A stretch of DNA of 64,000 bases from Cloacimonetes bacterium SCGC AAA252-N17 (GCA_000404785.1 ASNI01000006.1:3037-67036), one strand, 5' to 3'. Counted from the stretch's first letter, positions 8,606 to 51,142 are shown. Made by a program: numbers and translations. The notes: generated from the sequence alone by a model not told the origin.

Positions 8606-8710
8606 GTTAAAACAAGGTAAAAGGGTAAAAGATAAAAGGTATCCGTCTTCATTACACTTCGCCGCGACAAGAAGGTAAAAGGTAAAAGATAAAAGGCAAA
8701 AATAAAATAA
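8606..8710 (+). repeat. AAAAGGT/AAAAGAT heptamer array with an inserted CCGTCTTC hairpin
   Basis: aaagggt aaaagat aaaaggt [atccgtcttc..gacaag] aaggt aaaaggt aaaagat aaaaggc, directly before ATG 8711. Confidence 0.75.
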
Positions 8711-8890
8711 ATGAAAAAATACGAAATTGACCTTAACGAAAGATTAATTCAATTCGCAATAAATACTTTCAAATTCCTGAAATCATTACCAAAAGATAAA
8801 GAATATGATGTTTTTACCCTGTGAACCCCCCGACGAGAGGGGGAGAAGTGTAACTTCTGTTTCACTGGGTGAAGATATAAACTATTAATA
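8711..8890 (+). pseudogene. Four-helix-bundle protein remnant disrupted by a 57-bp hairpin insertion
   Basis: MKKYEIDLNERLIQFAINTFKFLKSLPKDKEYDVF aligns with DLSERLLNF..LPHNKEYDVFRYQL of the gene at 9861; after the insert at 8816-8872 it resumes RYKL. Confidence 0.75.
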
Positions 8891-8976
8891 TCATTTATTT
8901 TAAAAATAAAGACATTATGGAAATAATTAATGTTATATTTTTTAAGCAACAATAAATGTATAAAAAAGGAGATGCG

Positions 8977-9189
8977 ATGCAAAAAATTACTTTAAATATT
9001 AAAGACGAATCAAAATTAGATATTTTTATACGGTTTCTTCGTGAAATAAGTTTCATTGAAATATCTAAAATAGAAAAATCAACAAACGATTTTGAAACAA
9101 AAAGTTTTAATTATTTGTTTGGTATTTGGAAAAACCGCTCCATTTCATTATCCGATATTAGGGAAAAAGCTTGGGGAAGGAGTCTATAA
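8977..9189 (+). CDS. Putative VapB-type antitoxin
   Basis: Short ORF ending LFGIWK..IREKAWGR; SD AAGGAG; directly abuts the PIN gene. Confidence 0.7.
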   Translation: MQKITLNIKDESKLDIFIRFLREISFIEISKIEKSTNDFETKSFNYLFGIWKNRSISLSDIREKAWGRSL

Positions 9190-9564
9190 ATGGTTTTATG
9201 TGATACCAATGTTATTATTGAATTCTTCAAAGGTAATAATAAAACACTTAAAGAACTTGAGCAAATTGGTTTTGATAATATAGTTATAAGTACAATTACT
9301 GTTATGGAATTATACTATGGGGCTTTAAATAAGAAAGAATTAAGTAAGATTAAAAAATGTATTCATTCTTTAAATGTTCATCAAATTGATTCCTATATCT
9401 CAGAAATTTCAGTTGAATTGATTGAAAAGTATTCTAAGAGTCATAACCTAATGATTCCAGATGCTATTATAGCTGCGACAGCAATTTCAATTAAAATGGA
9501 CCTCTATACTTACAATCTCAAAGATTTCTCTTTCATTAAAGAACTTAAGCTATATAATTTATAA
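9190..9564 (+). CDS. vapC: VapC PIN-domain ribonuclease toxin
   Basis: VLCDTNVII, TVMELYYG, IPDAIIAATA, TYNLKDF. Confidence 0.92.
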   Translation: MVLCDTNVIIEFFKGNNKTLKELEQIGFDNIVISTITVMELYYGALNKKELSKIKKCIHSLNVHQIDSYISEISVELIEKYSKSHNLMIPDAIIAATAISIKMDLYTYNLKDFSFIKELKLYNL

Positions 9565-9607
9565 GAGTTAACAAATTGAGGATGCAATTGAACCCATGGA
9601 AAATTCT

Positions 9608-9742
9608 AAAGATAAAAGGGAAGACAAAAGATAAAAGAAAAAAGACGAAAGATTAAAAGCAGAAAGTAGAAATTGTAAAGCAGAAAGTTTACCCCGTGAA
9701 ATCTTTTGTTACTATTTCACCGGGGTAGAAAGCAGAAAGGTA
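9608..9742 (+). repeat. AAAGAT/GCAGAAA heptamer array with an inserted ccccgtgaaat..atttcaccgggg hairpin
   Basis: Repeat read directly from the sequence; same architecture as 1543-1617. Confidence 0.75.
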
Positions 9743-9860
9743 TAATATGATAGAAAAATTAGATATTGACGATCATATAAAGAATAATCCTTTATTATAT
9801 AAATCATTTTTTTAGCATTAGAAATTATCAAATTGTATAAATATTTAACTGAAGAAAAGC

Positions 9861-10262
9861 ATGGAATACAAGATTAAAGACGAAAGACAAAAGAGCAAAG
9901 AAAAGAAGATTAATCGTGATCTTTCAGAAAGACTTCTTAATTTCGTTGTAAAGACTATGCAATTTCTACGATCACTTCCACATAACAAAGAGTACGATGT
10001 CTTTAGGTATCAACTATCAAAATCATCTTCGTCCATAGGCGCCAACTACGAGGAATCTCAAGCATGCACTGAAAATGAATTCAAGCAGCGAATAGCCATC
10101 TGTCTTCGTGAAGCTCGTGAAACAAATTATTGGTACAGAGTAATTGATAAACTGGACATTGGTGATAGCGAACAAAGAAAATATTTATTACAAGAATCCT
10201 ATGAATTAAAGTTAATATTTGGATCAATATACTCCAAATGCTACAAGAAGGCAAAAATATGA
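9861..10262 (+). CDS. Four-helix-bundle protein (23S rRNA IVS protein/Avd-like family)
   Basis: QLSKSSSSIGANYEE, F...IAICLREARETNYW. Confidence 0.9.
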   Translation: MEYKIKDERQKSKEKKINRDLSERLLNFVVKTMQFLRSLPHNKEYDVFRYQLSKSSSSIGANYEESQACTENEFKQRIAICLREARETNYWYRVIDKLDIGDSEQRKYLLQESYELKLIFGSIYSKCYKKAKI

Positions 10263-11800
10263 ATAATAAAATTTTAATCTTTATTCTTTGCTCTTTAATC
10301 TTTTTTACTATAACTTTCTGCTCAAACACAGGACCTCAGACAGGAACATTATCCGGCACTATTAATTTAGAAGGTCAATCCGACCACTCCGGAATAATTA
10401 TAGGCATTTACAAACTTGCCGAGTTAGATCCCGACATCGTCGAAGCTAATCAGAAATGGCCCCACATTGGCGTAATAATTAATCAGATGACTGAATTCGA
10501 CCACCGCTTCGGCACATTAATTAAAACCGGAGAAACCGATGCATCCGGTTACTTTGAAATTAAAGACATCCCAACGGGTGTTTATAATGTAGTTGCAATA
10601 AAAGACTCTTTCGGTTTTCGTTATATTTACAATGTACAAATAAATGATGGAAATAATGAGCTTTCAGCAAAGAATAAAGACAAAAGATCAAAGATCAAAA
10701 GTGAAAATTCTACCGATGTCCTTAATCTTTCTTCTTTAGTCTTTGATCTTAATAATCGCACTAGCGATTTAACTCTTTTTCCCGAAACAACAATCTCCTC
10801 CGACATCTCCACCCCAACTACCTTTCTCTCCCACCATCATTACATAATTGAACAAGACATTATAGTTGATGACGAACTCATCATACAACCCGGTGCAGTT
10901 GTACGTTTGAACGAAGGCAAAGAAATAACCAGCTATGGTACCTTTAATGCAGTAGGAGAATATGAAAACTTCATCTGGTTTACCAAGAATGATGGATTTT
11001 CCGAAAACTTGAGTACAATAGAACCTGACTCAAATTATATTTGGGATAGAGTTACCCTAGAGCCATATTCACAAGCGCAGGTCCAATGGAGTAAATTCGA
11101 TTGTGCGAATATTGGATTGTTAAATCATGTGAATGGATTTGGGATTTCGGATTGTATTTTTAGTGCTAGTCAGTGTGGATTTAAAGCTGTGGATGTTGAT
11201 TCGATGTTTTGTAGTAATTTGTTGTGTGAAGCGATTACAAATGAAACTGAAGGTGGGATTTATTTTGTAAATTGTAATTCAGGTAAAATTAATAATAACC
11301 TGTTAGTAAAAAACTCTACAGGTATAAAAGTAAAGGATTTATCTAATCCCTTAATGAAGAATAATTACTTTACTCAAAATGAATTTGGTGCAGAATTATG
11401 GAGTAGTAATTCTTCTTTTATCAATAATGAATTTTCATACAATTCTAACGGTTTAAGGATTTGTGGAACCACTTCTCCCACAATATATCTTAATAACATT
11501 CAATCGGATATCGGAATATATATAGGATTTAACGATACCTATCCAAACGCAAATCCTGAAATTAATTTTAACAATTTAATCAATTGCGGCTATACGATTT
11601 ATGAAACGTTTTTTAATAGTAATGTTATAAATGCAGAGAATAACTATTTTGGCACTACTGATCCACTCATTATTGAAGAATTAATTCATGATAAAAATGA
11701 TCTATCATCAACGGCACCATATTATAACACTTATGGAATAATTAATTATATTCCATTTTTATTATCGGAATATCCAAATGCAGGAATACAGGATGAATAA
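10259..11800 (+). CDS. Secreted or lipoprotein with carboxypeptidase-regulatory-like domain and right-handed parallel beta-helix
   Basis: Signal peptide ending TFC; GTLSGTINLEG..G.YNVVA; repeated N..(I/F)..N..GI turns; C-terminal NAENNYFG. Confidence 0.65.
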   Translation: MNNKILIFILCSLIFFTITFCSNTGPQTGTLSGTINLEGQSDHSGIIIGIYKLAELDPDIVEANQKWPHIGVIINQMTEFDHRFGTLIKTGETDASGYFEIKDIPTGVYNVVAIKDSFGFRYIYNVQINDGNNELSAKNKDKRSKIKSENSTDVLNLSSLVFDLNNRTSDLTLFPETTISSDISTPTTFLSHHHYIIEQDIIVDDELIIQPGAVVRLNEGKEITSYGTFNAVGEYENFIWFTKNDGFSENLSTIEPDSNYIWDRVTLEPYSQAQVQWSKFDCANIGLLNHVNGFGISDCIFSASQCGFKAVDVDSMFCSNLLCEAITNETEGGIYFVNCNSGKINNNLLVKNSTGIKVKDLSNPLMKNNYFTQNEFGAELWSSNSSFINNEFSYNSNGLRICGTTSPTIYLNNIQSDIGIYIGFNDTYPNANPEINFNNLINCGYTIYETFFNSNVINAENNYFGTTDPLIIEELIHDKNDLSSTAPYYNTYGIINYIPFLLSEYPNAGIQDE

Positions 11801-12042
11801 AAGAAGAAAGCATTAATAACAGGACAGGATGGTTCATATCTTGCTGAATTATTATTGGACAAAGGATATGAAGTACATGGGATTATCCGTAGGGCATCAA
11901 CTTTTAATACAGAAAGAATTGATCATTTATTCAATAATCCTGAAATCCATGATAAAAAATTATTTTTACACTATGGCGATCTAACGGATTCCAGTAATTT
12001 AAACCGTATATTGGGAAAAGTTAAACCCAATGAAATATACAA
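11793..12042 (+). pseudogene. gmd: Truncated GDP-mannose 4,6-dehydratase
   Basis: [48 protein letters not shown]; start out of frame; one ITG of ITGITG missing; similarity ends after EIYN. Confidence 0.85.
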
Positions 12043-12222
12043 TATTGGCTTCCAGCTGTTGATGTATATGCTGAGAATAACTATTTTTATGCAAATGATG
12101 AAAATGAAATATCGGTTATTATATATGACAAAAATGATGTTGTAAATAATCAGGAAAATATTGGACTAATATTTTATGATCCATGGGAAGACACTCAAAT
12201 TGATAGCTGTGGAATTTATTAG
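12040..12222 (+). pseudogene. 3-prime fragment of a beta-helix protein paralogous to 10259-11800
   Basis: [31 protein letters not shown] resembles INAENNYFGTTDPLIIEELIHDKNDL..NYIPF. Confidence 0.65.
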
Positions 12223-12243
12223 TCAAAAATGAAATAATTTGAT

Positions 12244-13710
12244 ATGTTGAAAAAAAAAGAATATTCATTAACTTCACAAGCAGTATATGTGTTTTTAGGA
12301 AAGTTTATACAATTTCTTTTTCAAATTATTGTGCCAGTAATATTAGTACGTTTATTCACAACAGAACAATATGGTCTATATCGGCAAGTAATTTTTATGT
12401 GTCTTTTAATTGTTCCGATATTAAGGTTTCATTTCACAAATAGTCTTTTTTATCTTTATCCAAATAAAAATAATCATGAAGAACAGAGTGAATTAATTTC
12501 ACAAACTTTTTTTATTTTAATTTGTGTAGGTATATTTTTCTGCTTAATAGTTTTCATATTCCACAAATCTTTTATTTCATTAATTAATACTGAGAATTTT
12601 AATAAGATGGTTGTTCCTGCCGTATTTCTTATTACTTTATATGTATTTTCTTCAATTGTTGAGAATATATTTATTATTGAAAAAAAATCTAAACTAGTAA
12701 TAAGTTTTTTATCAATTGATACATTTATTAGAACATTATTTTTACTTGCATTTGTATTTTTTTATCGAACTATTTATGCGGCATTAATTGCATTAGTAAT
12801 ACATGGTGTATTGAAGTTTATTTTCCTTGTAATATATCTTCTACATTATTATAAGCTAAATATTTTTAAGATACATTTAGGGGGAGTGAAAGAACAGTTG
12901 AAGTATGTCATTCCAATGGGATTGAGTACTGTGATAGGTACAATCGGAAAAAATGTTGATAAAATTATATTGATTTATTTATTAACATCACAAGATTTTG
13001 CCTTATATTCTGTTGGTAACTTAAGTATTCCTTTTATAGCAATATTGTATTTGTCAGTTGGTAATGTAATACTACCACAAATTAGTAGATTTTCTAAAAA
13101 AAAAGAAAACAATAAAACAATTCAATTATGGAAAAAAATGATAATAAAAAATGCTACTTTTACGATACCGACTTTGATTTTTTTCTTTGTTCAGGCAAAT
13201 CATGTTTTTATTATTCTTTTTACTGAGAAGTATTTAGCAAGTGTTGGTGTTTTTCGGATATATATATTAGTTTTACTGATTCAAATGTTGGGTTATGGAT
13301 ATATACTAAGGGGGTATGGTAAAACGAAAAGTGTTTTTTATGCAAATTTAATAAAAACATTGTTCAGTATTGTATTCGGATTTCTTTTTATCAAGTATTT
13401 TGGAATTATAGGCGCAGCTGTTACATATGTCATTGCTTTTTCAATTAATGGTATATTTCAACTCTTTAGAACAAAATGTATGTTAAATATAAGTTGGTTA
13501 AACCTTTTGCCGTGGATGGATATTTTAAAATTATTTTTGGTTTCTCTACCACCAATTATACTGATAATATTAATTAATCAATGTAATTATTCGGATATTG
13601 TTTTAATTATTATAACTGGTATTGTATATTTTTCTATTGTATTTATGGCATTTGTGAAATTGGGGTACTTAAATATTAGAAATATTAAAGATTTAGCTAA
13701 ACTAAATTAG
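12244..13710 (+). CDS. wzx: Polysaccharide flippase (Wzx/MOP family)
   Basis: Many TM segments; RLFTTEQYGLY, DKIIL..ALYSVG, GIIGAAV. Confidence 0.88.
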   Translation: MLKKKEYSLTSQAVYVFLGKFIQFLFQIIVPVILVRLFTTEQYGLYRQVIFMCLLIVPILRFHFTNSLFYLYPNKNNHEEQSELISQTFFILICVGIFFCLIVFIFHKSFISLINTENFNKMVVPAVFLITLYVFSSIVENIFIIEKKSKLVISFLSIDTFIRTLFLLAFVFFYRTIYAALIALVIHGVLKFIFLVIYLLHYYKLNIFKIHLGGVKEQLKYVIPMGLSTVIGTIGKNVDKIILIYLLTSQDFALYSVGNLSIPFIAILYLSVGNVILPQISRFSKKKENNKTIQLWKKMIIKNATFTIPTLIFFFVQANHVFIILFTEKYLASVGVFRIYILVLLIQMLGYGYILRGYGKTKSVFYANLIKTLFSIVFGFLFIKYFGIIGAAVTYVIAFSINGIFQLFRTKCMLNISWLNLLPWMDILKLFLVSLPPIILIILINQCNYSDIVLIIITGIVYFSIVFMAFVKLGYLNIRNIKDLAKLN

Positions 13711-13718
13711 TTTAATAA

Positions 13719-14747
13719 ATGAAAATATTAATTATTATATCAAACTTACCTCCTTCTGGGGGAGCAGAGAAAGTGGCTTGGGATCTGGCCGTTAATTTAA
13801 AATACAAGCATGAAGTTCATGTTATCACATTTTGCAAAGAAAGTAAAACTGTTTATATTAATGAGGTCGCTGTACATTGTTTAAAACAAAGATCACATGC
13901 CCTTTGGTATTACATGACAATTGGCAGGAAACAAATTTTAGATATTGTAGACCAGATAAAACCGGACGTGATCAATGCACACATGCCTTCCATTATTGCA
14001 TTTGTTCTGAGACATTATCCAGCAAAAAAGGTGTTAACACTTCATAATAGTGAATATAAATTTTATGTGAAGAGTTTGTCTCAAAAACTGGAACATAAAT
14101 TTACCTTGAGAACGATTAATAGATTTGATCATGTAACCACTGTTTCTAGGCACATGCAGGCGTACTTCATTGAATTCTTAAAAAGAAATATCGAATTAAT
14201 CACCAATGGAATTGATTTAAATTTATTTAAACATAATGAAAAATGCCTTAGACAACGAAATACAATTTTGTATGTAGGCAGATTAGTTGAATTTAAAGGT
14301 GTGAAAATTATTTTTGAAATGGCGACTAAACTTCAAAAATTCAATTTTGTTTTAATAGGCCAGGGTCCATTATATAAAAGTATTGATCTTCCAAATGTTT
14401 TTTTTGAAGGTAGAAAACAAGCCCATGAGGTTGCTATATACTATAATGAATCTTTTCTTTCCATATTTCCAAGTATTTACGAGAATTTTCCACTAGTTGG
14501 TCTTGAAGCAATGGCTTGCGGTTCAATAGTATTGGCAAATGACATAAAAGGATTTAGAGAATATATCGAAAATGGAGTTAACGGATTTTTAATTGATATG
14601 AAAAACCAAGATCAAGTTATCAAAAAAATTGAAGAAATTGAAAACTCAGATAATTTAGATTGCATAAAAGAGAATGCATTCGATACTGCAAGAAAATATT
14701 CTTGGGAAAAAATTAAAAACAGTTATGTGGAATTGTATTCATCGTAA
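13719..14747 (+). CDS. Glycosyltransferase family 4
   Basis: GGAEKV, ILYVGRL..KG, PS.YENFPLVGLEAMACG. Confidence 0.9.
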   Translation: MKILIIISNLPPSGGAEKVAWDLAVNLKYKHEVHVITFCKESKTVYINEVAVHCLKQRSHALWYYMTIGRKQILDIVDQIKPDVINAHMPSIIAFVLRHYPAKKVLTLHNSEYKFYVKSLSQKLEHKFTLRTINRFDHVTTVSRHMQAYFIEFLKRNIELITNGIDLNLFKHNEKCLRQRNTILYVGRLVEFKGVKIIFEMATKLQKFNFVLIGQGPLYKSIDLPNVFFEGRKQAHEVAIYYNESFLSIFPSIYENFPLVGLEAMACGSIVLANDIKGFREYIENGVNGFLIDMKNQDQVIKKIEEIENSDNLDCIKENAFDTARKYSWEKIKNSYVELYSS

Positions 14748-14779
14748 GTAAAATATAAATATTGGGGCGATAGAATAAA

Positions 14780-15703
14780 ATGTTAGAAGAAACTATTTCG
14801 ATTAATCAATTGAGAAAAAAATCAGTAGTCATGCTTTTTGATATAAAAAATTCTCTGGATAAATGGAATGTAACTTATTGGTTAGATTTTGGATCGTTGT
14901 TAGGAGCCTTTAGAAGTGGTAAATCTATGCCGTGGGACGGTGATTTTGACCTTAGTACATTGGACTTGGACATAAATAAGAAAGAAGGACTTTGGCAGGA
15001 ATTAAAGAAAAAAGGTTATCTGCTAGATTTTTCTCATAGCAATATCAAAATAATAAAAAATGATTGGAGAATTGGACAATATCGACTTGATCTTCATAGA
15101 TATCATACTAATGAAAAAGATGATGCTGAATATGAATATGGTCGTAAGTATGTAAGAAAAATCGATTTCTTTTTGAATAATTTTATCCAGGTTTTAGATT
15201 TCCTCATGGTCCCTAATATTAAATCAAAGATAAAATATCCTACTTTTGGTATTCTATGCAGGCTCTTGCTGCAGAATGGAGTTGACCCAAATGAACTTGA
15301 AACTTTAGAACCTTTTAAGGTTATAAAAGGAAAATTTAATAGTCATTATGATTTAGTCATCCAAACTTCTCAAGTAGAAATTTTTAGTTCACCTCTACAG
15401 AGATTAACTAAATCCAGCAAACTATTTTATCATATTATTAAGATTTCACCTAATTTTTTAATAACAGGATTGTTCTCATTGCTAAATAATCATCTTCTCA
15501 GGTCTCCGAAAATTCCATCACGTAGAGTGTTCTTTCCTAAACGTTTTTATAATGCATTTACACCTATAGATTTTTTTGGTATGAAATTTAATGCTCCAAG
15601 TCCTACAGAAGAATATCTTGAAAGAATTTATGGAAATAATTGGAAAACTCCATTAGTTACTAAAAATAAAAAATATTTAAATAGGATAACTTATAAAAAA
15701 TGA
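14780..15703 (+). CDS. LicD-family phosphotransferase
   Basis: YWLDFGSLLGAFR..PWDGDFD; C-terminal F.GMKFNAP..YLERIYG.NW. Confidence 0.88.
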   Translation: MLEETISINQLRKKSVVMLFDIKNSLDKWNVTYWLDFGSLLGAFRSGKSMPWDGDFDLSTLDLDINKKEGLWQELKKKGYLLDFSHSNIKIIKNDWRIGQYRLDLHRYHTNEKDDAEYEYGRKYVRKIDFFLNNFIQVLDFLMVPNIKSKIKYPTFGILCRLLLQNGVDPNELETLEPFKVIKGKFNSHYDLVIQTSQVEIFSSPLQRLTKSSKLFYHIIKISPNFLITGLFSLLNNHLLRSPKIPSRRVFFPKRFYNAFTPIDFFGMKFNAPSPTEEYLERIYGNNWKTPLVTKNKKYLNRITYKK

Positions 15704-18829: not shown

Positions 18830-19495
18830 ATGTTTTTAAAAATAAATAATCTTATTCTTAAGATATTTAGAAAATTAATTAGCTACTTAAAAATCAGAAT
18901 TCATTATGGTTTAGTTTTTTGTTATGATATTAATATAATTAAGAAGATTACAAATTCGAAGAGCAATGCAGAATTAATAAAGTCACCAATCAAAATTGTT
19001 CAATGTAATAACTCAATTGATATTTATAATTATTATAATAAAAATGGTAAATATATTCCTGAAGAAGTAATTGCTGATTGGCTGTTAAATGATTATAGGT
19101 GCTGGCTAGCATATAGCTCAAATGAAATAGCTGGGATTTCTTGGACATGGACAGGAAAAGTACATTTACAGGGTTTAAGTGGTAGAGCTTTTTCGAAAAA
19201 GAAGACAATCGAATTTGAAGAAGACACATTCTATATTTGTCATGTACATGTCGACCGAAAATACAGAGGACAGAATATAATGGCAAAACTTGAAATTGAA
19301 CAGCTTAAATTTCATCTTATTGAGAATAATTATAGCAAAGGGGTCATTACAATGGGTATAGATAATATACCCAGTGTTAAAACTCAAACAAAATTAGGTG
19401 GTAAGTTAATTGTTGTATCTTTTATGTTGTTTTTATTGAATATTCAGTTTCGAAAGTATTTGTACTTTGATAGAAAAGAAAAATGTTGGAATTAA
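18830..19495 (+). CDS. GNAT-family acyltransferase
   Basis: YICHVHVDRKYRGQNIM acetyl-CoA motif; DNIPS...KLGG. Confidence 0.75.
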   Translation: MFLKINNLILKIFRKLISYLKIRIHYGLVFCYDINIIKKITNSKSNAELIKSPIKIVQCNNSIDIYNYYNKNGKYIPEEVIADWLLNDYRCWLAYSSNEIAGISWTWTGKVHLQGLSGRAFSKKKTIEFEEDTFYICHVHVDRKYRGQNIMAKLEIEQLKFHLIENNYSKGVITMGIDNIPSVKTQTKLGGKLIVVSFMLFLLNIQFRKYLYFDRKEKCWN

Positions 19496-42413: not shown

Positions 42414-42417
42414 AGGG

Positions 42418-43185: not shown

Positions 43186-43194
43186 GAGTGTATT

Positions 43195-44115: not shown

Positions 44116-44513
44116 AATTAAATACAATCCCTAAGCATTCTGATCAAAGGGGTTTTTTAATAGAGTTTATTCGGGAAGATGAGAATTTATTAAATTTTAA
44201 AGGGCAAATATATGCATCAACTATCAGTCCTGGAGATATACGAGGAAATCATTATCATAACGAGAAAACAGAAATTTTCTGTGTTATGAAAGGTAAACTA
44301 AAAGTATTGGTTCAACAAATTGATTCAAACAAGATTAATGAGTATATATTAGACAGCAATAAAGATGAATTAGATAGAATACTGGTGTCACCCAAATACG
44401 CTCATGCTTTTATTAATATTGGTAATGAAGAAGTAATTTTGTTGGCTTATGGTGATAAAGTTCATGACCATGGCAATCCCGATCAGTATAAATTTATTAT
44501 TTGTTCAAATTAA
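44112..44513 (+). CDS. Cupin sugar 3,4-ketoisomerase/epimerase (FdtA/WxcM-like)
   Basis: D.RG.L, RGNHYH, P.YAHAF. Confidence 0.8.
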   Translation: MKLNTIPKHSDQRGFLIEFIREDENLLNFKGQIYASTISPGDIRGNHYHNEKTEIFCVMKGKLKVLVQQIDSNKINEYILDSNKDELDRILVSPKYAHAFINIGNEEVILLAYGDKVHDHGNPDQYKFIICSN

Positions 44514-44619
44514 AGATTTAATGATGAAGAATTACTAATGGATACATAATACACTCGACACCACTTACTCCTTCCGAAGCTTCTCAGGCTGTGTGAAGAT
44601 GATTTATTTAATTTATAAC

Positions 44620-44725
44620 GACCCCCATCCCTTAACCCTTCCCCCTATCGAAGGGGAAGGGAACTGCCTGCGGCAAAAGGAGATAGATTCTCCCCCTATT
44701 TAGGGGGAGTTAGAGGGGGTTGAGA
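44620..44725. repeat. Purine/pyrimidine-tract double hairpin (ccccatcccttaacccttccccct..aggggaaggg; tccccctatttaggggga)
   Basis: Two GC-rich inverted repeats in an intergenic region. Confidence 0.75.
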
Positions 44726-45089
44726 AAATATCGAGCATTTCATCAGTTTTCACACAAGCTGTTTTGCTTCGGAAACTAATAGGATTTGAAGTGTTTGCTC
44801 CGGCATTGAAAGCTTCTACTTCGCTATTGAGAGAAGCAGAAGCTTCTGGAGTTAGCGTCTTCCGAAATGAAAAGTTCGGAAGGAGAAAATCAATATGTCA
44901 GGAATTTAATGTACTCATTAGTATATCTGTTGGTTCAACATATCTATATTGGATTTTGCATAGTTTTTTCCAAACCAAATCTTTCTAATAAATAAACAAT
45001 AAAATTAAGAAAATGAGTATCTTAAAGAATAGATATATAATTAAAATCAGTGTTAATCAGTTTAATCTGCGCAATCTGTGTTCTAAACA

Positions 45090-46202
45090 ATGAAAGTTAA
45101 ATTTTTAGATTTAAAATCACAATATTTGTCAATCAAAGAAGAAATAGATAATGCAATTCAGAATGTTTTATTGGATTCTGCATTTACTTCTGGTCCTTAT
45201 GTAAGATCATTTGAAGATAATTTTGCAAAACGTCATACTGCTAAATATTGTGTTGCAGTTAATTCTGGGACTGCTGCCCTGCATGCCTCTTTAATGGCTT
45301 TGGATATCAAAGCTGGTGACGAAGTTATTGTTCCTGCCAATACTTTTTTTTCAACTCCTCTTTCAGTAACATTGACTGGAGCCACTCCAGTTTTTGTTGA
45401 TTGTGAAAGCGATTATTTTAATATCGATGTAAATGAGATTGAAAATGCAATTACAGGTAAAACAAAAGCAATTATTGCAGTGCATCTTTATGGTCAACCA
45501 TCACAAATAGATAAAATTAAAGCGATTGCAGATAAACATGGTTTATATCTAATTGAAGATTGTGCTCAAGCACATATTGCAAAGTATAAAGAAGGATTTG
45601 TCGGAAATTTTGGAAAATGTGGTTGTTTCAGTTTCTATTGTGGCAAAAACTTAGGTGCTTATGGCGAAGGCGGAGCGATTATTACTAATGATGAAACTCT
45701 ATATGAAAAATTGTTAATGATTAGAAATATTGGTATGTCTCGAAAATACTATCATGATTTGATAGGTCATAATTACAGAATGTCAGGTATGCAAGGTGCA
45801 ATCCTCGATGTTAAGTTGAAACATTTAGATGAATGGACTGATACACGCAGAAAAAATGCTGATTTGTACAGAAGATATTTAGCTGATTGCAGTGAGATAA
45901 TATTACCAAATGAAATGGATAATATTAAGCACGTATATCATCTTTTTGTTATTAGAACTCAAAAGAGAGATAAGCTCATGCATTTCCTTGATAATAATCA
46001 AATACAAACCGGCATTCACTATCCAATACCTTGTCATCTGCAAAAAGCGTATGATTATTTAAACTATAAAATAGGAGATTTCCTTATAACTGATAAATTG
46101 GCTAATGAAATAATTTCTCTTCCAATGTCTGAGCAATTAAAAGAAGAAGAAATTAGGTATGTCTCTTGGAAAATAAAGGAATTTTTTAGTAATAGAGTTT
46201 GA
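45090..46202 (+). CDS. DegT-family aminotransferase (FdtB-like)
   Basis: VNSGTAALH, VHLYGQP, EDCAQAH, SFYCGKNLGAYGEGG, YHLFVI. Confidence 0.88.
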   Translation: MKVKFLDLKSQYLSIKEEIDNAIQNVLLDSAFTSGPYVRSFEDNFAKRHTAKYCVAVNSGTAALHASLMALDIKAGDEVIVPANTFFSTPLSVTLTGATPVFVDCESDYFNIDVNEIENAITGKTKAIIAVHLYGQPSQIDKIKAIADKHGLYLIEDCAQAHIAKYKEGFVGNFGKCGCFSFYCGKNLGAYGEGGAIITNDETLYEKLLMIRNIGMSRKYYHDLIGHNYRMSGMQGAILDVKLKHLDEWTDTRRKNADLYRRYLADCSEIILPNEMDNIKHVYHLFVIRTQKRDKLMHFLDNNQIQTGIHYPIPCHLQKAYDYLNYKIGDFLITDKLANEIISLPMSEQLKEEEIRYVSWKIKEFFSNRV

Positions 46203-46311
46203 TCTGTGGTATATAGAAAATTGGACTTTCTGGCTTGATGTTAAAATTATTTTTATGACAGTATTTAGCAGGCAATCTAAATTAAATGCGTTTTAATATA
46301 TTTTAGTTTGG

Positions 46312-46353
46312 GGGTTTAGGAGTTTAGAGGTTTAGAGGGTTAGAGGTTTAGAA
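46312..46353 (+). repeat. Octamer array (AGGTTTAG), left flank of a four-helix-bundle gene
   Basis: gggtttag gagtttag aggtttag agggttag aggtttag. Confidence 0.85.
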
Positions 46354-46716
46354 GTGCATACATATTCATTTGAAAAACTTTAAGTATGGAAATTAGCAAA
46401 AGATTTTGTTATTAAAATTTACAGGATAACAGAGAAATTTCCAAAATCAGAAAAATTTGGAATAGTAGATCAAATAAGACGTTCTTCAGTTTCTGTACCT
46501 ACCAATTTATCCGAGGGAAGTGGAAGGCAAACAGGAAGAGATAAAGCACATTTCACACAAATTGCTTATGGCAGCATAATGGAGTGCTTGAATCTATTAA
46601 TTATTTCTCGTGATTTGGAGTATATTTCTCAAGATGAATTAGATGATTTAAGATCTGATATCGAAAGAATTACAAAGAAACTTTCAAATTTACGCCTATC
46701 ACAACTAAACAACTAA
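46354..46716 (+). pseudogene. Four-helix-bundle protein with in-frame TAA at 46381-46383 (not in the ORF track)
   Basis: MHTYSFEKL*VWKLAK..FPKSEKFGIVDQIRRSSVSVPTNLSEGSGR..F.QIAYGSIME. Confidence 0.85.
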
Positions 46717-46719
46717 GAT

Positions 46720-46860
46720 AAGTTTAGAAGGTTAGGTGTGTAGAGTTTTATGTGTTTATTGGGTTAGAAGGTTATGGATTTTTTCTAAACTTCTAAACTT
46801 TTTTCCTAAACTTCTAAACTGTTTTTTCTAAACTTCTAAACTTTTTTTCTAAACTTCTAT
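46720..46860. repeat. Direct then inverted octamer arrays (GTTTAGAA / TTCTAAAC) forming a long potential hairpin
   Basis: agtttagaaggttagg.. followed by about seven ctaaact units. Confidence 0.85.
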
Positions 46861-46879
46861 AACAAAAAAAAGAGCCATC

Positions 46880-48427
46880 ATGAAAAAACTCCTCTTAACA
46901 ATAATAGTCTTAACAACCCTCACTACAATCTCCTTCGCAGACTATATCATCTCACCCAACGATCCCGTCTATTCATTTCTCGAAACAGCTCAAAACTTAG
47001 GTTATACAGAACAGTTAATATCTGTCTATCCCCAATATCATGATAAGGTCATTAATGACCTTACTCAATTGCTATCATTGGATATTGCAGTAAGTTATAA
47101 GAAACTTGCTGAATATCATTTAAAAAGAATTTCGCTTATCACTTCTTATGGATTTGAGTCAGCACTCTATCCGATAAAGAAAATTCCACAATCCTTCATC
47201 TCGATATTCAAGAATCGATCTCCGAAAAAAAGATTATTCCGATTTAAAAAAGGAGATACTGATCTATTTCTTTCCGGAATCATTGGAATAGATTATGATT
47301 TATTGAAATCAGATGCTGAAGATAAGCATCGTTTGCTAAAATATTATGGATTAGAGTTTGGTGGTAACATATCAGAGACTATTGGAATATTCTCTATATT
47401 CCGCAAAGGGCATTATACCTGCGATGCCTATTTTACTCGAGCGGATTCTGTACAACTCATTTCTGATAATTGGGAAAATCCTGAAAAGGTAGAGATTCAG
47501 ACAGAGTGCTTTTTGCAAACAAATTTATTAGATTTTTCTATTGGATATGGAAATTTTCAGTTTGGTAATGCCATAACTTCTTCAATTATTCTCAACAAGG
47601 ATATTTCACCTTTTCCTTATATAAAAGTTTCAAAACAGTTCGGTGATTTCTCATACATATCTTTATATAGCCAATTAGTTCCGGATAGTCTGAAAGATGA
47701 AATAGAATATGAATCCAAATCCTATGCGCTACAAATGCTATCTTATCAAACCGATAAATTGTTCTTAGCCATTGGTGAATGCTCAATTTATGGTGACAGG
47801 AATTTTGATATTTCCTATTCCACACCCTTAATTATGTACAAGCTGGTAGATTTTGCAAATCAATCCAGAGATAATGTAAATGCTTTTTTAATCACAAATT
47901 ATTCTCCATTCAATGGTTTTCTTATTTATAATAATTTATTTATTGATGATGTAAAGTTGAGTAGATTAACAACTAATGAATATTTGTCAGGATTCGCTGA
48001 ACAGCTTGGAGTAAGTTATTCATTTGAAAAGTTACCATTAAATATCACTTTTGAAGGAACCGCTATTGGACCGAGAACATATTGCCACCGCAGGGATTTA
48101 GTTTACAGTCATAGAAATCAATTACTCGGTTATCCGAATGGCTCTAATCAACTTAATCTTGCGATTCAGGCTCAATATTTATTACCAGGTCTGGAATGTA
48201 AAGTGCTATATTCAAATATGCAGCAGGGCAGTATTAGTAATGATCCTTTCAAGCCGCAGCCCAATACTAAATTCTTAGCTGGTGAAATCAGCAGGACACA
48301 AAATATTGTTGCTTCGATAAATTATAGTTTTACACCGGAATTGAAGTTTCATCTCAGATATGAATATGAGAATACAGATGATAAGGTGAAGAATTATGTT
48401 TATTCGGGAATTGAGTTGAAATATTAG
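46880..48427 (+). CDS. Outer-membrane beta-barrel, capsule assembly Wzi-like
   Basis: Signal peptide; DP.Y.FLE N-terminus; alternating aromatic strands; C-terminal ..GIELKY. Confidence 0.6.
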   Translation: MKKLLLTIIVLTTLTTISFADYIISPNDPVYSFLETAQNLGYTEQLISVYPQYHDKVINDLTQLLSLDIAVSYKKLAEYHLKRISLITSYGFESALYPIKKIPQSFISIFKNRSPKKRLFRFKKGDTDLFLSGIIGIDYDLLKSDAEDKHRLLKYYGLEFGGNISETIGIFSIFRKGHYTCDAYFTRADSVQLISDNWENPEKVEIQTECFLQTNLLDFSIGYGNFQFGNAITSSIILNKDISPFPYIKVSKQFGDFSYISLYSQLVPDSLKDEIEYESKSYALQMLSYQTDKLFLAIGECSIYGDRNFDISYSTPLIMYKLVDFANQSRDNVNAFLITNYSPFNGFLIYNNLFIDDVKLSRLTTNEYLSGFAEQLGVSYSFEKLPLNITFEGTAIGPRTYCHRRDLVYSHRNQLLGYPNGSNQLNLAIQAQYLLPGLECKVLYSNMQQGSISNDPFKPQPNTKFLAGEISRTQNIVASINYSFTPELKFHLRYEYENTDDKVKNYVYSGIELKY

Positions 48428-48520
48428 ATGGGGGAAACGTTGAGAGAAAGAGACGTTGTGAAGGAGAGACTGGGGGACTTGGTGAAGGGGAGTTTGGACT
48501 AATAGGCGGTAGGGTGATAA
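48428..48520 (+). repeat. G-rich octamer array (NNAGAGAC/NNGGTGAA), left flank
   Basis: gttgagag aaagagac gttgtgaa ggagagac tgggggac ttggtgaa. Confidence 0.7.
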
Positions 48521-48538
48521 GGCGAAAAATAGAGTATT

Positions 48539-48910
48539 ATGAAAATAAGAACGCATAAAGATCTTGTAGTTTATCAATTAGCTTTTGATGCAGCAATGGA
48601 AATATTTGAAATTACAAAATTATTTCCTAAAGAAGAACGATATTCTTTAGTTGATCAAATGCGCAGAAGTTCTCGTTCTGTAGCAGCAAATATTGCAGAA
48701 GCTTTTAGGAAAAGAAAGTATCCAAAAGCTTTTATATCAAAATTATCAGATAGCGAATCTGAAGCTGCAGAAACTCAGGTGTGGTTAGAATTTACTTTGA
48801 AATGCAGATATATTGATGAAATTACATTTGATGATTTGTTTAATAATTATGATCATATAATTGGCAAACTTGTAAATATGAGTAGAGAGCCACAGAATTG
48901 GAGCATATGA
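48539..48910 (+). CDS. Four-helix-bundle protein
   Basis: FPKEERYSLVDQMRRSSRSVAANIAEAFRKR..KLSDSESEAAETQVW. Confidence 0.92.
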   Translation: MKIRTHKDLVVYQLAFDAAMEIFEITKLFPKEERYSLVDQMRRSSRSVAANIAEAFRKRKYPKAFISKLSDSESEAAETQVWLEFTLKCRYIDEITFDDLFNNYDHIIGKLVNMSREPQNWSI

Positions 48911-48927
48911 AATTTCAAGGCAGTCAA

Positions 48928-48966
48928 TGATTTCTCACATTCTCTCTATCTCTAAGTCTCTTATTC
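48928..48966 (-). repeat. Inverted octamer array, right flank
   Basis: atttctca cattctct ctatctct aagtctct. Confidence 0.65.
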
Positions 48967-49026
48967 GTTTAAATATCTTTGAACAATGTAAATAATCTAA
49001 TAAACAAAATAAATTGAGGTTTACAT

Positions 49027-50565
49027 ATGATGAAAGCATCCCTCTCGCCCAACGGAACGGAATATAAACTTCCAACCGAATCTGAATCAGCGAATGAATT
49101 AAAAGAACTCAAGAAAATAACTGCCGAGCAACGAAAATTAGGACGCAAGATCGTAGCTGTGCAGGGGATGGGTTTTGTCGGCTGCGTGATGGCAGCAGTT
49201 GTTGCAGATGCAGTTGATGAAAAAGGAGAACCGCTCTATTTTGTGCATGGTCAGCAAAGAGCTTCTCTGCGTTCCTTTTGGAAAGTGCCGGTTATCAATC
49301 GAGGAATCCCACCGGTAAGTTCCTCCGATGTAGAAGTGCCAAAAATATTTCATAGAACTGTAGTTGAAAAGAAAACACTGAGAGCAACATGGCTCAATTA
49401 TGCATATGAGGTGGCAGATATTGTGGTTGTAGATATTCAGTTGGATGCTACGAAACCTACTTTTGGAGATGCCTCTCAGGGCTATTGTGATATGTCTGCC
49501 TTTAGAGATGGCATGAAAAATCTTGGTATGCATATTTCTCCTGAATGTCTTATTCTTGTAGAAACAACTGTTCCGCCCGGAACATGCGAGAATGTCGTTA
49601 AGCCACTTATTGAAGAGGAATTTAATAAACGTGGAATTGACATTGCAAAGAATCCTCCTTTGATCGCACATTCTTATGAGCGAGTTATGCCCGGTGCAAA
49701 GTATGTAAGCTCAATCCGAGATTTCTGGCGTGTATTTTCGGGAGTGAATGAAAAGAGTAAGTATATTGCTCGAGAGTTTTTAAACAATATTCTCGATACT
49801 GAGAAATATCCCCTTACTGAATTGGATAACACAAATGCATCCGAACTTTCCAAGGTTATGGAAAATTCATATCGTGCAACGAATATTGCACTTACACTTG
49901 AATGGGCAAAGTGTGCGGAAAAGATAGGTGTCGATATTCATAAAGTACGTGCTGCGATCCGCAAACGTAAAGGTACTCACGATAATTTATTGCGTCCAAG
50001 TTTAGGGGTGGGTGGATATTGTCTGACGAAAGATCCTGTTCTGGCAAACTGGGCAATGGGTGCTATTTTTAATATTGATGATAAGCTGAAAATTGCAATA
50101 AATTCTGTTGATATTAATGATACAATGCCATTACATACTATCGATCTTATCAAAGAAGAATATCCTGATTTGAAGGATGTAAAGATAGCTGTTTTGGGTG
50201 TTTCTTATTTAGAAAATTTAGGAGACACGAGACATTCACCGTCCGAAACTCTGATAAAATTCTTGAATGAATATTGGGCAATTGTCAAAACCCACGATCC
50301 TTATGTGGAATATTGGGCAGAAATGGAGAATGTGCCGATTGAAAAATCACTATCCGATGCGCTAAAAGATGCAGATGTGGTCATTTTTGCTGTAGGTCAT
50401 ACGCAATACCTCGAGCTCGACCCGGATGAGGTTGTTGCGATGACAGGGAAAAAACCTCTTATTATAGACTGCTCAAATTTTCTTAATGATGAGAAGATAA
50501 AGGCATATTTGAGAGCAGGATGTAAAGTCAAAGGTGTTGGGAAGGGACATATTGGGAAGCTGTGA
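49027..50565 (+). CDS. Nucleotide-sugar dehydrogenase (UDP-HexNAc 6-dehydrogenase family)
   Basis: GMGFVG, ETTVPPGT, SYERVMPG, K..ENSYRA.NIA, GVGGYCL.KDP. Confidence 0.88.
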   Translation: MMKASLSPNGTEYKLPTESESANELKELKKITAEQRKLGRKIVAVQGMGFVGCVMAAVVADAVDEKGEPLYFVHGQQRASLRSFWKVPVINRGIPPVSSSDVEVPKIFHRTVVEKKTLRATWLNYAYEVADIVVVDIQLDATKPTFGDASQGYCDMSAFRDGMKNLGMHISPECLILVETTVPPGTCENVVKPLIEEEFNKRGIDIAKNPPLIAHSYERVMPGAKYVSSIRDFWRVFSGVNEKSKYIAREFLNNILDTEKYPLTELDNTNASELSKVMENSYRATNIALTLEWAKCAEKIGVDIHKVRAAIRKRKGTHDNLLRPSLGVGGYCLTKDPVLANWAMGAIFNIDDKLKIAINSVDINDTMPLHTIDLIKEEYPDLKDVKIAVLGVSYLENLGDTRHSPSETLIKFLNEYWAIVKTHDPYVEYWAEMENVPIEKSLSDALKDADVVIFAVGHTQYLELDPDEVVAMTGKKPLIIDCSNFLNDEKIKAYLRAGCKVKGVGKGHIGKL

Positions 50566-50642
50566 CAGGGCGACGGGGTGACTTGGTGAGGGAGAGACTG
50601 AGAGAGACAGGCTGACTGGGTGAGATTGAGATAAGATGAGAA
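50563..50642 (+). repeat. Octamer array (NNNGTGAC), left flank
   Basis: gtgacagg gcgacggg gtgacttg gtgaggga gagactga. Confidence 0.75.
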
Positions 50643-50666
50643 ATAATAAAAAAGGAGGAGGGTATA

Positions 50667-51038
50667 ATGAAAATAAGAGATCATAATGAATTGGATGTTT
50701 TTAATTTGTCTTTTGATAATGCGATGAAAATATTTGAACTTTCTAAGAATTTCCCAAAAGAAGAAAAGTTTTCATTAACTGATCAGATTAGAAGAGCTTC
50801 GAGATCAGTTGCTACGAATATTGCTGAAGCATTTAGAAAAAGACGTTATCCTAAAGCGTTTGTAGCAAAACTTTCAGATTCTGAAGCAGAAGCTGCAGAA
50901 ACTCAGGTCTGGTTAAAATTTTCCTATGAATGCAGCTATATAGACAAACAGGTTTTCAACGAATTAATCCAAAGTTATGATTTTGTTCTGGGGAAATTGG
51001 TAAATATGAGCCGGCAACCAGAGCAATGGACAACGTAA
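50667..51038 (+). CDS. Four-helix-bundle protein, close paralog of 48539-48910
   Basis: FPKEEKFSLTDQIRRASRSVATNIAEAFRKRRYPKAF. Confidence 0.92.
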   Translation: MKIRDHNELDVFNLSFDNAMKIFELSKNFPKEEKFSLTDQIRRASRSVATNIAEAFRKRRYPKAFVAKLSDSEAEAAETQVWLKFSYECSYIDKQVFNELIQSYDFVLGKLVNMSRQPEQWTT

Positions 51039-51061
51039 TATCCATCAGACTTTTTATAAAT

Positions 51062-51142
51062 CTCAAAGTCACTTGGTCACTTAGTCACAAAGTCCCCAAA
51101 TCACATAGTCCCAAAGTCTCTATGTCATAAAGTTACTAAATC
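51062..51142 (-). repeat. Inverted octamer array (GTCACNNN), right flank, about 10 units
   Basis: ctcaaagt cacttggt cacttagt cacaaagt ccccaaat cacatagt cccaaagt ctctatgt cataaagt. Confidence 0.85.

Follow-up and report, generated by a model that had tools for sequence, protein, structure and literature searches.

S23p genes and their flanking arrays in the window

The window, a 64,000-nucleotide stretch of a Cloacimonadota genome, contains five genes of the family PF05635/TIGR02436, all on the + strand and named here by their first positions (8711, 9861, 46354, 48539 and 50667; Table 1). The family comprises the "23S rRNA intervening-sequence" (S23p) four-helix-bundle proteins, products of a small bacterial gene of unknown function. 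All five copies were found where an earlier note on this DNA had placed them. Its count of four full-length copies needs amending: 9861, 48539 and 50667 are intact and exceed the PF05635 and TIGR02436 cut-offs in a profile search, whereas 46354 is a pseudogene with an in-frame TAA. Because strain L094 reads GAA at this codon, the TAA is a recent nonsense mutation.

The window copies score 45.6, 122, 109 and 103 bits with PF05635 (cut-off 33.8) and 61-120 bits with TIGR02436 (cut-off 24); the 8711 remnant is below the usable length for an HMM. Alignment A1 shows no variation at residues Q40, S47, N51 and E54 (e.g. DQIRRASRSVATNIAEA), and the conserved Q..R...S...N..E motif of the window copies is the family motif GxxRxxxSxxxNxxE (PMC3936711). 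The proteins show sequence homology to 2GSC (E = 4e-9) and 2RLD (E = 2e-9), each an entry with five chains. PF05635 is their sole domain; the profile search matched no catalytic family and no transposase, recombinase or nuclease domain. Related strains encode a protein identical to the 50667 product on 23 or more contigs. The 8711 remnant is truncated at a hairpin (TTTACCCTGTGAA...TTCACTGGGTGAA, about 8813-8873) of a type found at the boundaries of GIY-YIG elements, and an antitoxin/PIN toxin pair follows at 8956-9564.

Table 1. S23p genes and associated tandem arrays in the window
Feature	Position	Strand	Remark
Upstream heptamer array (AAGGTAA/AAAGATA) of 8711 remnant	8606-8707	+	
Remnant of 9861-type (D-type) gene, 37 codons	8711-8824	+	59% identity to 9861
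Distal upstream heptamer arrays (AAAGAYA, AAAGCAG) of 9861	9596-9745	+	
Intact D-type gene, 133 aa	9861-10262	+	profile search
Reverse-complement heptamer array (TTTAATC type) of 9861	10270-10306	+	
Gene-less D-type array followed by its own reverse complement, 84 nt, in frame	10668-10752	+	within ORF 10238-11800
Upstream octamer array GGTTTAGA, about 6 units, of 46354	46297-46355	+	
C-type gene, recent pseudogene	46354-46716	+	strong profile match, TAA at 46381-46383
Degenerate sense-orientation array downstream of 46354	46717-46778	+	
Reverse-complement array of 46354, four 21-nt super-units TTTTTTCTAAACTTCTAAACT	46779-46862	+	
Degenerate purine-rich octamer array (GAGAC/GTGAA; GNGAC/GNGAA) upstream of 48539	48428-48520	+	
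Intact A-type gene, 123 aa	48539-48910	+	66% identity to 50667
Reverse-complement array of 48539 (TCTCNC), short, degenerate	48931-48966	+	weakest of four arm pairs
Upstream octamer array (GTGAC/GAGAC; GNGAC/GNGAA) of 50667	50558-50640	+	
Intact B-type gene, 123 aa	50667-51038	+	
Reverse-complement octamer array CAAAGTCA, about 9 units, of 50667	51050-51140	+	

Each of the five copies has a purine-rich tandem array of 7-8-nt units upstream and its reverse complement downstream, and a tandem repeat search recovered these inverted arrays, with the units attributed to them, at every site described earlier. The units are contiguous, head to tail and without spacers; a CRISPR array, in which unique spacers separate the repeats, is thereby ruled out. 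An unrelated insert of roughly 30 nt (about 8640-8672) interrupts the array of the 8711 remnant, and a hairpin (9701-9735) is embedded in the distal arrays of 9861. Inside the 9861 gene, a heptamer array of the AAGGTAA/AAAGATA type at 9870-9915 is translated as a Lys/Glu-rich N-terminal tail, and the array downstream falls in the signal-peptide coding part of the next gene (10238-11800). The array upstream of 48539 begins immediately 3' of the stop codon of the gene at 46880-48427, while the first unit of that upstream of 50667 holds the TGA stop (50563-50565) of a dehydrogenase gene. Unit number is polymorphic among strains: L094 has 4 units upstream of its 46354-type gene and two 21-nt units downstream, and L097 has three units more than the window upstream of its 50667-type gene.

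Solo arrays without a gene also occur in the window, at 1543-1588 and 56170-56241. Small inserted GIY-YIG and PDDEXK_3 genes of the window bear inverted flanks as well, so that such flanks are not exclusive to the PF05635 family.

Generality among relatives

Among 123 distinct relatives from many phyla, 88 have arrays on both sides (period 6-10), and the period is the same on either side of the gene: 8/8 in 40 AB-type and 7/7 in 18 D-type genes. The convergent layout of the window is thus general across relatives. For 100 relatives in other genomes, 161 ORFs from the same loci served as a control. Since 78% of flank pairs exceed the control 95th percentile, the objection foreseen in the earlier note, that such arrays might be equally frequent around unrelated genes, falls away. 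Upstream arrays are purine-rich in 87 cases and pyrimidine-rich in 5, downstream arrays are pyrimidine-rich in 75 of 104, and the motif points toward the interior of the element. Each arm has a median of about 4.6 units; the spacer between upstream array and gene has a median of about 60 nt, that between gene and downstream array about 20 nt, and the encoded protein measures 110-135 aa.

The upstream array usually starts at or overlaps the stop codon of the host gene before it, the gene is sense-oriented within host operons (58 vs 12), and no promoter is recognisable within the cassette. With a median dN/dS of 0.12 over 61 pairs, the protein is functional and under purifying selection. The proposal that these elements populate polysaccharide operons is too narrow: relatives are found in conjugation, cas and many unrelated operons (PMC3936711), as well as on plasmids, and Nostoc and Leptolyngbya plasmids bear the same gene-plus-arrays cassette.

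The repeat unit follows protein subfamily and locus

The claim that the repeat unit tracks the protein subfamily holds across phyla. D-type genes, of which 9861 is one, carry AAAGRTA (AAAG[A/G]TA) heptamers down to about 42% protein identity, in Cloacimonadota, Calditrichia, Brocadia, Bacteroidales and metagenomes. AB-type genes (48539/50667) carry nnGNGAnn octamers, whose core recurs in Cloacimonadota, Bacteroidota, Ignavibacteriota and Cyanobacteria. The choice between periods 7 and 8 depends on subfamily (Fisher P = 5e-12), and protein distance correlates with motif overall (Mantel r = 0.24, a value reached in 0 of 2000 permutations) and within AB (0.21).

The two arms of one locus also match each other better than arms from different loci. 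Within AB, cognate arms score 35 and non-cognate arms 18 (P = 1e-28); the corresponding values are 28 and 16 for C, 27 and 23 for D, and 28 and 18 within one contig (P = 1e-4). Distinct subfamilies on one contig retain distinct motifs. Unit order and number change fast while unit core and period stay constant per subfamily. None of the protein residues shows clear co-variation with those positions of the unit that vary, and part of the link between subfamily and motif could come from co-descent of gene and arrays.

Pairing of the arms as RNA

Arm-to-arm RNA duplex energies were scored against shuffled downstream arms. The values are -33 kcal/mol for 9861 (z -6.2), -55 kcal/mol for 46354 (z -7.0) and -67 kcal/mol for 50667 (z -6.3), while the arms of 48539 (-40 kcal/mol, z -1.0) are not significantly better than their shuffles. 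When 65 window ORFs are ranked by how well their flanks pair, 50667, 46354 and 9861 come second, fourth and sixth; ranks 1 and 3 belong to the GIY-YIG and PDDEXK_3 genes. Predicted MFE folds of the window copies pair the two arms, with a potential, imperfect stem of 43-66 bp.

In the window copies 46354, 48539 and 50667, pairing is more stable in the sense strand than in the antisense strand. Family-wide, there is no excess of G:U (136 G:U-type vs 163 A:C-type mismatches) and no difference between sense and antisense duplex energies (63 vs 60), and the lengths of the two arms are uncorrelated among relatives (rho 0.08). The idea that the transcript ends pair is thermodynamically strong for three of four copies and finds no family-wide echo in G:U pairs or strand. 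Such pairing is no more than plausible; the predicted topology fits the RNase III-cut stem of rRNA intervening sequences (PMC4990558).

Turnover and possible mobility

The gene and its two arrays act as one unit, as had been proposed: in L103 and L101, a gene of a different subfamily (E-type) arrived together with a GGTGATA array of its own and the corresponding reverse complement. The element at a given site differs among close relatives, and remnants and nested insertions occur there as well. For gene-bearing elements, no clean filled-versus-empty site with defined termini was found, and no target-site duplication or exact end could be identified; replacements have ragged junctions. Those beside the dehydrogenase gene look like homology-anchored illegitimate recombination, which is possible for any DNA. 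The L144 and L151 orthologues lack the gene-less array pair at 10668-10752 but are too diverged to define junctions.

Comparison with known systems

Intervening sequences (IVSs) of 23S rRNA with an S23p ORF, known from Leptospira, Coxiella burnetii and CPR rRNA insertions, encode the same family and likewise place a sense ORF in a host transcript, with complementary termini forming a stem around it. Such termini surround the sense S23p ORF here too, with z of -6 to -7 in three of four window copies. The nearest precedent for the arrays is the tandem heptamers of the Coxiella IVS: GACAGAT, two to three times and varying in number among strains, lies at the 5' terminus, immediately preceding the S23p ORF; RNase III cuts the 28-bp terminal stem within a run of three tandem heptamers, at the first one (PMC4990558). 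In contrast to that system, the hosts here are mRNA operons rather than rRNA (the window has no match to any Rfam family, those of rRNA among them), each end is a complete array of 4-9 units instead of a single 28-bp inverted repeat, and unit and period are subfamily-specific. The Coxiella ORF is decaying, unlike the protein here, which is under purifying selection; those who studied it consider that its S23p is probably not made (PMC4990558), which counts against a cassette reading.

Avd of diversity-generating retroelements (DGRs) is a homologous four-helix bundle that forms a pentameric ring and binds nucleic acid and reverse transcriptase (PMC10053308, PMC6182149). Unlike Avd genes, the copies here adjoin no reverse transcriptase, which makes a template and variable repeat pair unlikely, and their HMM scores lie below Avd cut-offs; flanking arrays are undescribed for DGRs. 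STRR/LSSR heptamers of cyanobacteria, Bacteroidota, Beggiatoaceae and Xanthomonas are likewise 7-nt, intergenic, variable in number and of unknown function, with 70-75 convergent pairs, including GGGAATC, in Xanthomonas (PMC4692102, PMC4679880, 10.1101/309039). TRF and strain comparison reveal the same head-to-tail 7-9-nt units of variable number here. Those reports tie the repeats to no gene, whereas the present arrays are cassette ends that follow the gene subfamily.

Inverted ends and an intergenic position are shared with MITEs, REP/BIME and small TIR elements, as are the gene-less derivative at 10668-10752, nested insertions and remnants. The terminal inverted repeat takes the form of convergent tandem arrays rather than a unique sequence, however, no transposase is known, and no target-site duplication was seen. 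The TRAP 11-mer ring, which reads GAG/UAG tandem RNA repeats, offers a functional analogy, not homology: a homo-oligomeric ring is matched with a short-repeat array of conserved core and variable spacers, and the median unit number per arm here is near five subunits. The TRAP fold is unrelated to S23p, for which array binding is putative.

Probable origin and proposed function of the cassettes

On balance, each copy is probably a compact selfish cassette of the 23S rRNA IVS kind, albeit one residing within protein-coding operons, and the two arrays are best read as the ends of the element, in the role of terminal inverted repeats. Each consists of an array with some 4-6 copies of a 7-9-nt repeat (purine-rich in the sense strand), a spacer, the gene and the reverse-complement array, and would be transcribed by read-through of the host operon. 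Once transcribed, the two arms could zip into a 43-66-bp imperfect duplex looping out the gene, and RNase III cutting of this topology, as in rRNA IVSs, could allow low-cost residence in essential transcripts. The encoded ring protein would recognise the arrays of its own element, with perhaps a single unit for each subunit, and thereby control processing or expression, or promote the maintenance or spread of the element. The conserved unit core suggests such recognition by a pentameric protein, and it is the most likely role because core and period of the unit stay fixed within a subfamily even as the units change rapidly in order and number.

A possible, if rather unlikely, alternative is that the arrays act on DNA, as multi-site protein-binding ends (like transposon sub-terminal repeats) or as hairpin or cruciform ends in ssDNA, to move, copy or exchange the cassette, RNA pairing being a by-product. 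The arms are symmetrical as DNA, with neither G:U bias nor sense/antisense difference, the motif always points to the interior, gene-less array pairs are present in some orthologues and absent from others, and occupants of the same intergenic slot swap quickly. Yet the protein has no nuclease or recombinase domain, target-site duplications and exact termini were not found, and the sense bias in operons and the RNase III precedent favour the transcript; on general reasoning, an 8-nt period is also unlike the DNA helical repeat.

It is improbable that the arrays are host-useful operon punctuation and the small gene incidental, whether as mRNA stability or processing stem-loops, in stopping upstream translation or through unit-number control of surface-polysaccharide expression. 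The position of arrays at upstream stop codons, the strain differences in unit number and the co-option of the array at 10270-10306 as signal-peptide coding sequence all agree with such a role, and all three frames are open in 55/104 downstream arrays against 27/102 upstream arrays, but this stop-codon pattern is only a tendency. Strong purifying selection on the gene, the prediction of motif by subfamily and the occurrence in unrelated operons and plasmids argue otherwise, and the differing slot occupants of close strains and the build-up of remnants are the behaviour of a parasite, not a regulator.

Chance or slippage, by which AT-rich genomes gather simple 7-8-nt repeats of the STRR/LSSR type with genes lying between them by accident, is very improbable. 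Among intergenic tandem repeats of prokaryotes, heptamer arrays are the most frequent (10.1101/309039), and the window has its solo arrays, but inverted complementarity, locus-specific co-variation of arms and subfamily-specific unit and period would go unexplained, and the control ORFs, the cognate versus non-cognate arms and the within-contig comparison contradict it. Scarcely credible, finally, are degraded DGRs with leftover Avd accessory genes: the similarity to bAvd and DGR Avd models is weak (23-27 bits; PF22296 23-27 against a cut-off of 40, NF033474 23-26 against 80), no reverse transcriptase adjoins any copy in the gene and Pfam tables, RVT is absent from the Pfam table of an identical locus (L100) and relatives (neighbours: aminotransferase, UDP-sugar dehydrogenase and glycosyltransferase), the neighbours are polysaccharide-synthesis and toxin-antitoxin genes (with a lipoprotein gene near 9861), and relatives were not found in viral contigs.

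No prior general description of these gene-plus-array cassettes was found in the literature. The reading as selfish, IVS-like cassettes offers a testable lead on two old puzzles, namely the role of this protein and the abundance of 7-base tandem repeats in bacteria.

Gene copies and arrays in the window

A tblastn search of the window with its own proteins recovers exactly five four-helix-bundle genes, all in the same orientation, which fall into D, C, A and B subfamilies and are referred to here by their start positions (see table). The intact genes exceed the curated cut-offs of both PF05635 (23S_rRNA_IVP) and TIGR02436 ('four helix bundle protein'), and their nearest solved relatives, 2GSC and 2RLD, each contain five chains per deposit. 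PADLOC returned no defence-system match for these proteins, and no AB-type relatives were found in viral contigs. Contigs with the best matches are from Cloacimonadota, and the 50667 protein recurs without change on at least 23 contigs, including NCBI assemblies such as GCA_000397845.1. The C-type copy is a recent pseudogene, since a sister-strain locus (L094) reads GAA at the site of its in-frame stop codon.

The orthologue of 48539 in two single-cell assemblies (L093 and L097, 3873-4241) carries four non-synonymous and zero synonymous differences, including a W to G change in the conserved QVW, which could stem from amplification error or from a relaxation of selection on this copy. An apparent 119-aa gene in L093 was considered as a different occupant and rejected, as it is the 48539 gene with another start call.

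The earlier note had described inverted tandem arrays of 7-8-mers around these genes, a description borne out by reading of the sequence and by Tandem Repeats Finder (TRF). The D-type upstream arrays consist of AAAGAYA-type heptamers, which in 9861 also occupy the first 55 nt of the ORF, with the reverse complement downstream at 10270-10306. The C-type copy is preceded by GGTTTAGA octamers and followed by 21-mers containing TCTAAAC, while the A and B types carry GNGAC/GNGAA octamers upstream and their reverse complement downstream. Whole-element folds were computed along with duplexes between these two arms, the latter scored against shuffled downstream arms. When 65 window ORFs are ranked by flank pairing, three four-helix-bundle genes stand in the top six together with two other small inserted genes, one PDDEXK_3 gene and one GIY-YIG gene, the last having the strongest flank pairing of all. 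A promoter and terminator scan showed no enrichment, and an Rfam search gave no match.

Four-helix-bundle genes, arrays and other features of the window, with arm-duplex statistics (z relative to shuffled downstream arms)
Feature	Window position	Strand	Description	Arm duplex (kcal/mol)	Pairs	z
Remnant copy	8711-8821	+	37 codons, 59% identity to 9861			
Intact D-type copy	9861-10262	+	133 aa	-33	43	-6.2
C-type copy	46354-46716	+	in-frame TAA at 46381-46383	-55	59	-7.0
Intact A-type copy	48539-48910	+	123 aa	-40	50	-1.0 (no better than shuffles)
Intact B-type copy	50667-51038	+	123 aa, 66% identity to 48539	-67	66	-6.3
UDP-sugar dehydrogenase gene	49027-50565		two flanking slots			
Gene-less D-type array pair	10668-10752		in frame within ORF 10238-11800			
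D-type downstream array	10270-10306 (region 10238-10330)		pyrimidine-rich			
Solo arrays	1543-1612; 53145-53170; 56170-56241		no neighbouring four-helix-bundle gene			
GIY-YIG gene	52480-52773		97 aa			
60-100-nt repeat region	52200-53170; 55890-56140		TTGTCATTCTGG...GAAGAATCTCCC			
PDDEXK_3 gene	58909-59376 (with downstream array)		GxxExxY-type; between ybeY-like and CNNM-like genes			
PDDEXK_3 arrays	58930-58962; 59353-59376		CACAGAG-type in first 50 nt; reverse complement right after stop			
38-40-nt hairpin units	1590-1612; 3176-3289; 4458-4569; 8813-8873; 9701-9735		CCCGT...ACGGG cores, partly tandem			
Toxin-antitoxin island	3300-9600		between remnant and intact D-type copies			
Nucleotidyltransferase/HepT pairs	3326-4137; about 5527-6163		in island			
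Nucleotidyltransferase-type genes	7343-7789; 8146-8415		in island			
PIN toxin and antitoxin	8956-9564		in island			
11-nt tandem repeat	8416-8449		TATGCCAACTT x3, perfect, directly 3' of the stop of ORF 8146-8415			

Among the solo arrays, one of AAAGCAG type with half a hairpin is nearly identical to 9660-9715, and pyrimidine arrays of TTCACTC type resemble orphan downstream arms of A/B-type elements. The 11-nt repeat is unrelated in sequence to the other window arrays.

Generality of the layout

Loci holding relatives of each subfamily were drawn from species-representative genomes, metagenomes, strain-level assemblies and cyanobacterial plasmids, a single pass over the species-representative genomes yielding 211 relatives of one subfamily. 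For the first 100 genes, alignment of the upstream flank with the reverse complement of the downstream flank gave a median score of 31.5. The corresponding medians were 16 in 161 control ORFs of those loci and 17 when flanks were mispaired, and 78% of the 100 genes exceeded the 95th percentile of the controls. A '>>> gene <<<' layout is common to every locus drawn in schematic, and it is found in cultured cyanobacteria as well (Nostoc punctiforme pNPUN02 and Leptolyngbya BL0902). By TRF, arrays of period 6-10 lie on both sides of 88 of 123 distinct genes and the two arms agree in period; the upstream array is purine-rich in 87/102 and the downstream array pyrimidine-rich in 75/104. Between the upstream array and the start codon lies a median of 59 nt, and the downstream array begins a median of 23 nt after the stop codon. 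Arrays have a median of 4.6 units (about 35 nt) but spread widely, so that a correspondence of one arm to five units is suggestive only, and the lengths of the two arms are uncorrelated (rho 0.08). A proposed rule, by which upstream arrays would be closed by stops in every frame and downstream arrays left open, was rejected as a compositional tendency.

Repeat units follow the protein subfamily

That the repeats track the protein subfamily, as the earlier note proposed, held at the level open to test here. The D-type heptamer consensus A-A-A-G-(A/G)-T-A is shared among Cloacimonadota, Calditrichia, Brocadia, Bacteroidales and assorted metagenomes, and persists in genes whose proteins are as little as about 42% identical. 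Octamers with a conserved G-N-G-A core accompany A/B-type genes in Cloacimonadota, Bacteroidota, Ignavibacteriota and Cyanobacteria, and E-type genes of other genomes, which adjoin the same dehydrogenase gene, carry GGTGATA/GGTATTA heptamers. Period splits D from A/B almost perfectly (16:0 versus 5:51; Fisher P = 5e-12). Protein distance correlates with the array k-mer profile (Mantel r = 0.24, reached by 0 of 2000 permutations), also within A/B (r = 0.21). Host composition is not the cause of the link: several contigs, the window included, hold two or three subfamilies that each keep their own motif. On such shared contigs cognate arms score 28, compared with 18 for the arms of another element (P = 1e-4). 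Non-cognate arms match worse within a subfamily too, so the two arms at a locus evolve in concert. Among orthologues at dS of about 0.5 the motif persists whereas unit order and number do not, and strains differ by whole units. Mutual information between protein columns and variable unit positions in the AB type, a comparison confounded by phylogeny, revealed nothing convincing.

Operon setting and turnover

The protein is under purifying selection (median dN/dS 0.12 over 61 pairs), with internal stops in roughly 7 of 123 genes. The gene lies in sense between co-oriented neighbours at 58 loci versus 12 (P = 2e-8), and the stop codon of the preceding gene forms the start of, or falls within, the upstream array.

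The two slots flanking the dehydrogenase gene vary in occupant among genomes whose dehydrogenase is 88-97% identical, and may hold A-, B-, C-, D- or E-type genes, a PDDEXK_3 gene or a GIY-YIG gene. At one such locus (L103, 4025-4955), an E-type gene with both its arrays stands in place of the B-type upstream array and the 5' two-thirds of the gene; what remains of the B-type element is the 3' end of the gene and the downstream array. At another (L101, 6090-7195), a GIY-YIG element splits that E-type gene, itself a replacement of the 5' part of a B-type element, at the conserved S...N..E motif, and at a third (L102, 3245-3945) an apparently frameshifted A-like gene sits next to a solo E-type downstream array. 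GIY-YIG genes also occur near D-type genes or truncated copies (L152, L162, L166, L169 and L170), a 5' fragment of the dehydrogenase is duplicated in L095 and L101, and remnants and solo arrays are present in the window too. Slot turnover, nested insertions and remnants are the behaviour of a parasitic cassette. The visible junctions, however, are ragged, with the conserved dehydrogenase gene as their anchor. Ordinary homology-facilitated illegitimate recombination could therefore account for them too, and no dedicated mobility mechanism emerges from them. In a further genome (L104, 5515-6265), the slot 3' of the dehydrogenase opens with a GAGAC/GTGAC array followed by some 630 masked bases (N).

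A gene-less D-type array pair lies in frame within the lipoprotein gene that follows 9861 and is missing from two orthologues. Comparison with five orthologous loci (L143, L144, L148, L089 and L149) marks this site as an insertion hot spot, empty in some and filled in others by D-type array pairs that vary in length, by AATGACN heptamers or by further hairpin-like inserts, each of them read in frame; heptamer arrays appear at a second, more downstream site in L144 and L151. At the start of the same gene, the D-type downstream array supplies the codons for the hydrophobic core of the signal peptide (MNNKILIFILCSLIFFTITFC); among orthologues (L144-L154) this lipoprotein signal peptide varies along with the array units.

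The PDDEXK_3 gene has the array layout of the four-helix-bundle genes, and inverted flanks also bound two others of its kind (L096 and L109). The GIY-YIG gene lies amid many copies of the 60-100-nt repeat. The 38-40-nt hairpin units flank a nucleotidyltransferase/HepT pair. They look like the short inverted repeats (TTTACCCCGT...) found at the borders of GIY-YIG genes elsewhere (L095, L101, L107 and L152) and may have arisen from GIY-YIG elements as gene-less derivatives.

How the cassette may work

The closest experimentally studied relative is the intervening sequence (IVS) of 23S rRNA. In Coxiella, a 28-bp terminal stem in the 23S IVS encloses the S23p ORF, and two to three tandem GACAGAT heptamers lie just upstream of this ORF, the first being where RNase III cuts (PMC4990558). 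The window elements have that topology in mRNA operons, their arms being whole arrays. The favoured reading is therefore an IVS-type cassette with arms able to fold the insert out of the host transcript. As each subfamily keeps its unit core and period despite rapid unit turnover, something subfamily-specific appears to read the units, and the encoded ring protein is the economical candidate.

The main rival is that the arrays act at the DNA level, as protein-binding or hairpin-forming ends. Symmetric arm alignments display no family-wide excess of G:U among arm mismatches (136 G:U versus 163 A:C), and sense and antisense arm duplexes are equally stable across the family, both of which speak against RNA pairing as the sole role. 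Only in the window do three copies show a preference for the sense strand, which could be strand compositional bias. The other explanations fit the data poorly: operon punctuation without a role for the gene; DGR remnants, the intact genes scoring far below the models of the DGR accessory protein Avd; and simple slippage.

A further proposal, less likely than not, is that the four-helix-bundle pentamers recognise their own 7-8-nt arrays by sequence, each subunit taking one unit and each subfamily having a specificity of its own. Gene and convergent arrays would then constitute a hitherto unrecognised and very widespread kind of cassette, mobile or self-maintaining, from which many of the enigmatic STRR/LSSR heptamer and octamer tandem repeats of bacteria, and the rRNA IVSs, would derive.

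Significance

Few small proteins of unknown function are as common as those of PF05635/TIGR02436 in Bacteroidota, Cyanobacteria, Cloacimonadota and numerous further phyla, and their role outside DGRs has been a question since rRNA IVSs were described in the early 1990s. Already known are the protein family, rRNA IVSs with inverted termini, the Coxiella heptamers, the presence of such genes inside cas operons, and heptamer arrays as a class (STRR, LSSR, TAACTGA, and GGGAATC with convergent pairs). In the literature, of which coverage was incomplete and in which an earlier description is possible, no statement was found that convergent tandem arrays generally frame these genes, or that unit and period follow the subfamily.

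The link is threefold: the arrays are paired cassette ends, their unit and period are subfamily-specific, and the arms co-vary locus by locus. It makes both the role of the protein and the origin of the repeats directly testable by experiment, and practical interest is high because the decisive experiments are simple. Annotators can use it to spot pseudogenes, remnants of elements and coding sequence that derives from arrays, and it may account for some spurious associations with repeat arrays. It also explains why cas, polysaccharide and conjugation operons contain such genes. Were the protein indeed a reader of its own arrays, it would constitute a small, naturally diversified repeat-recognition module.
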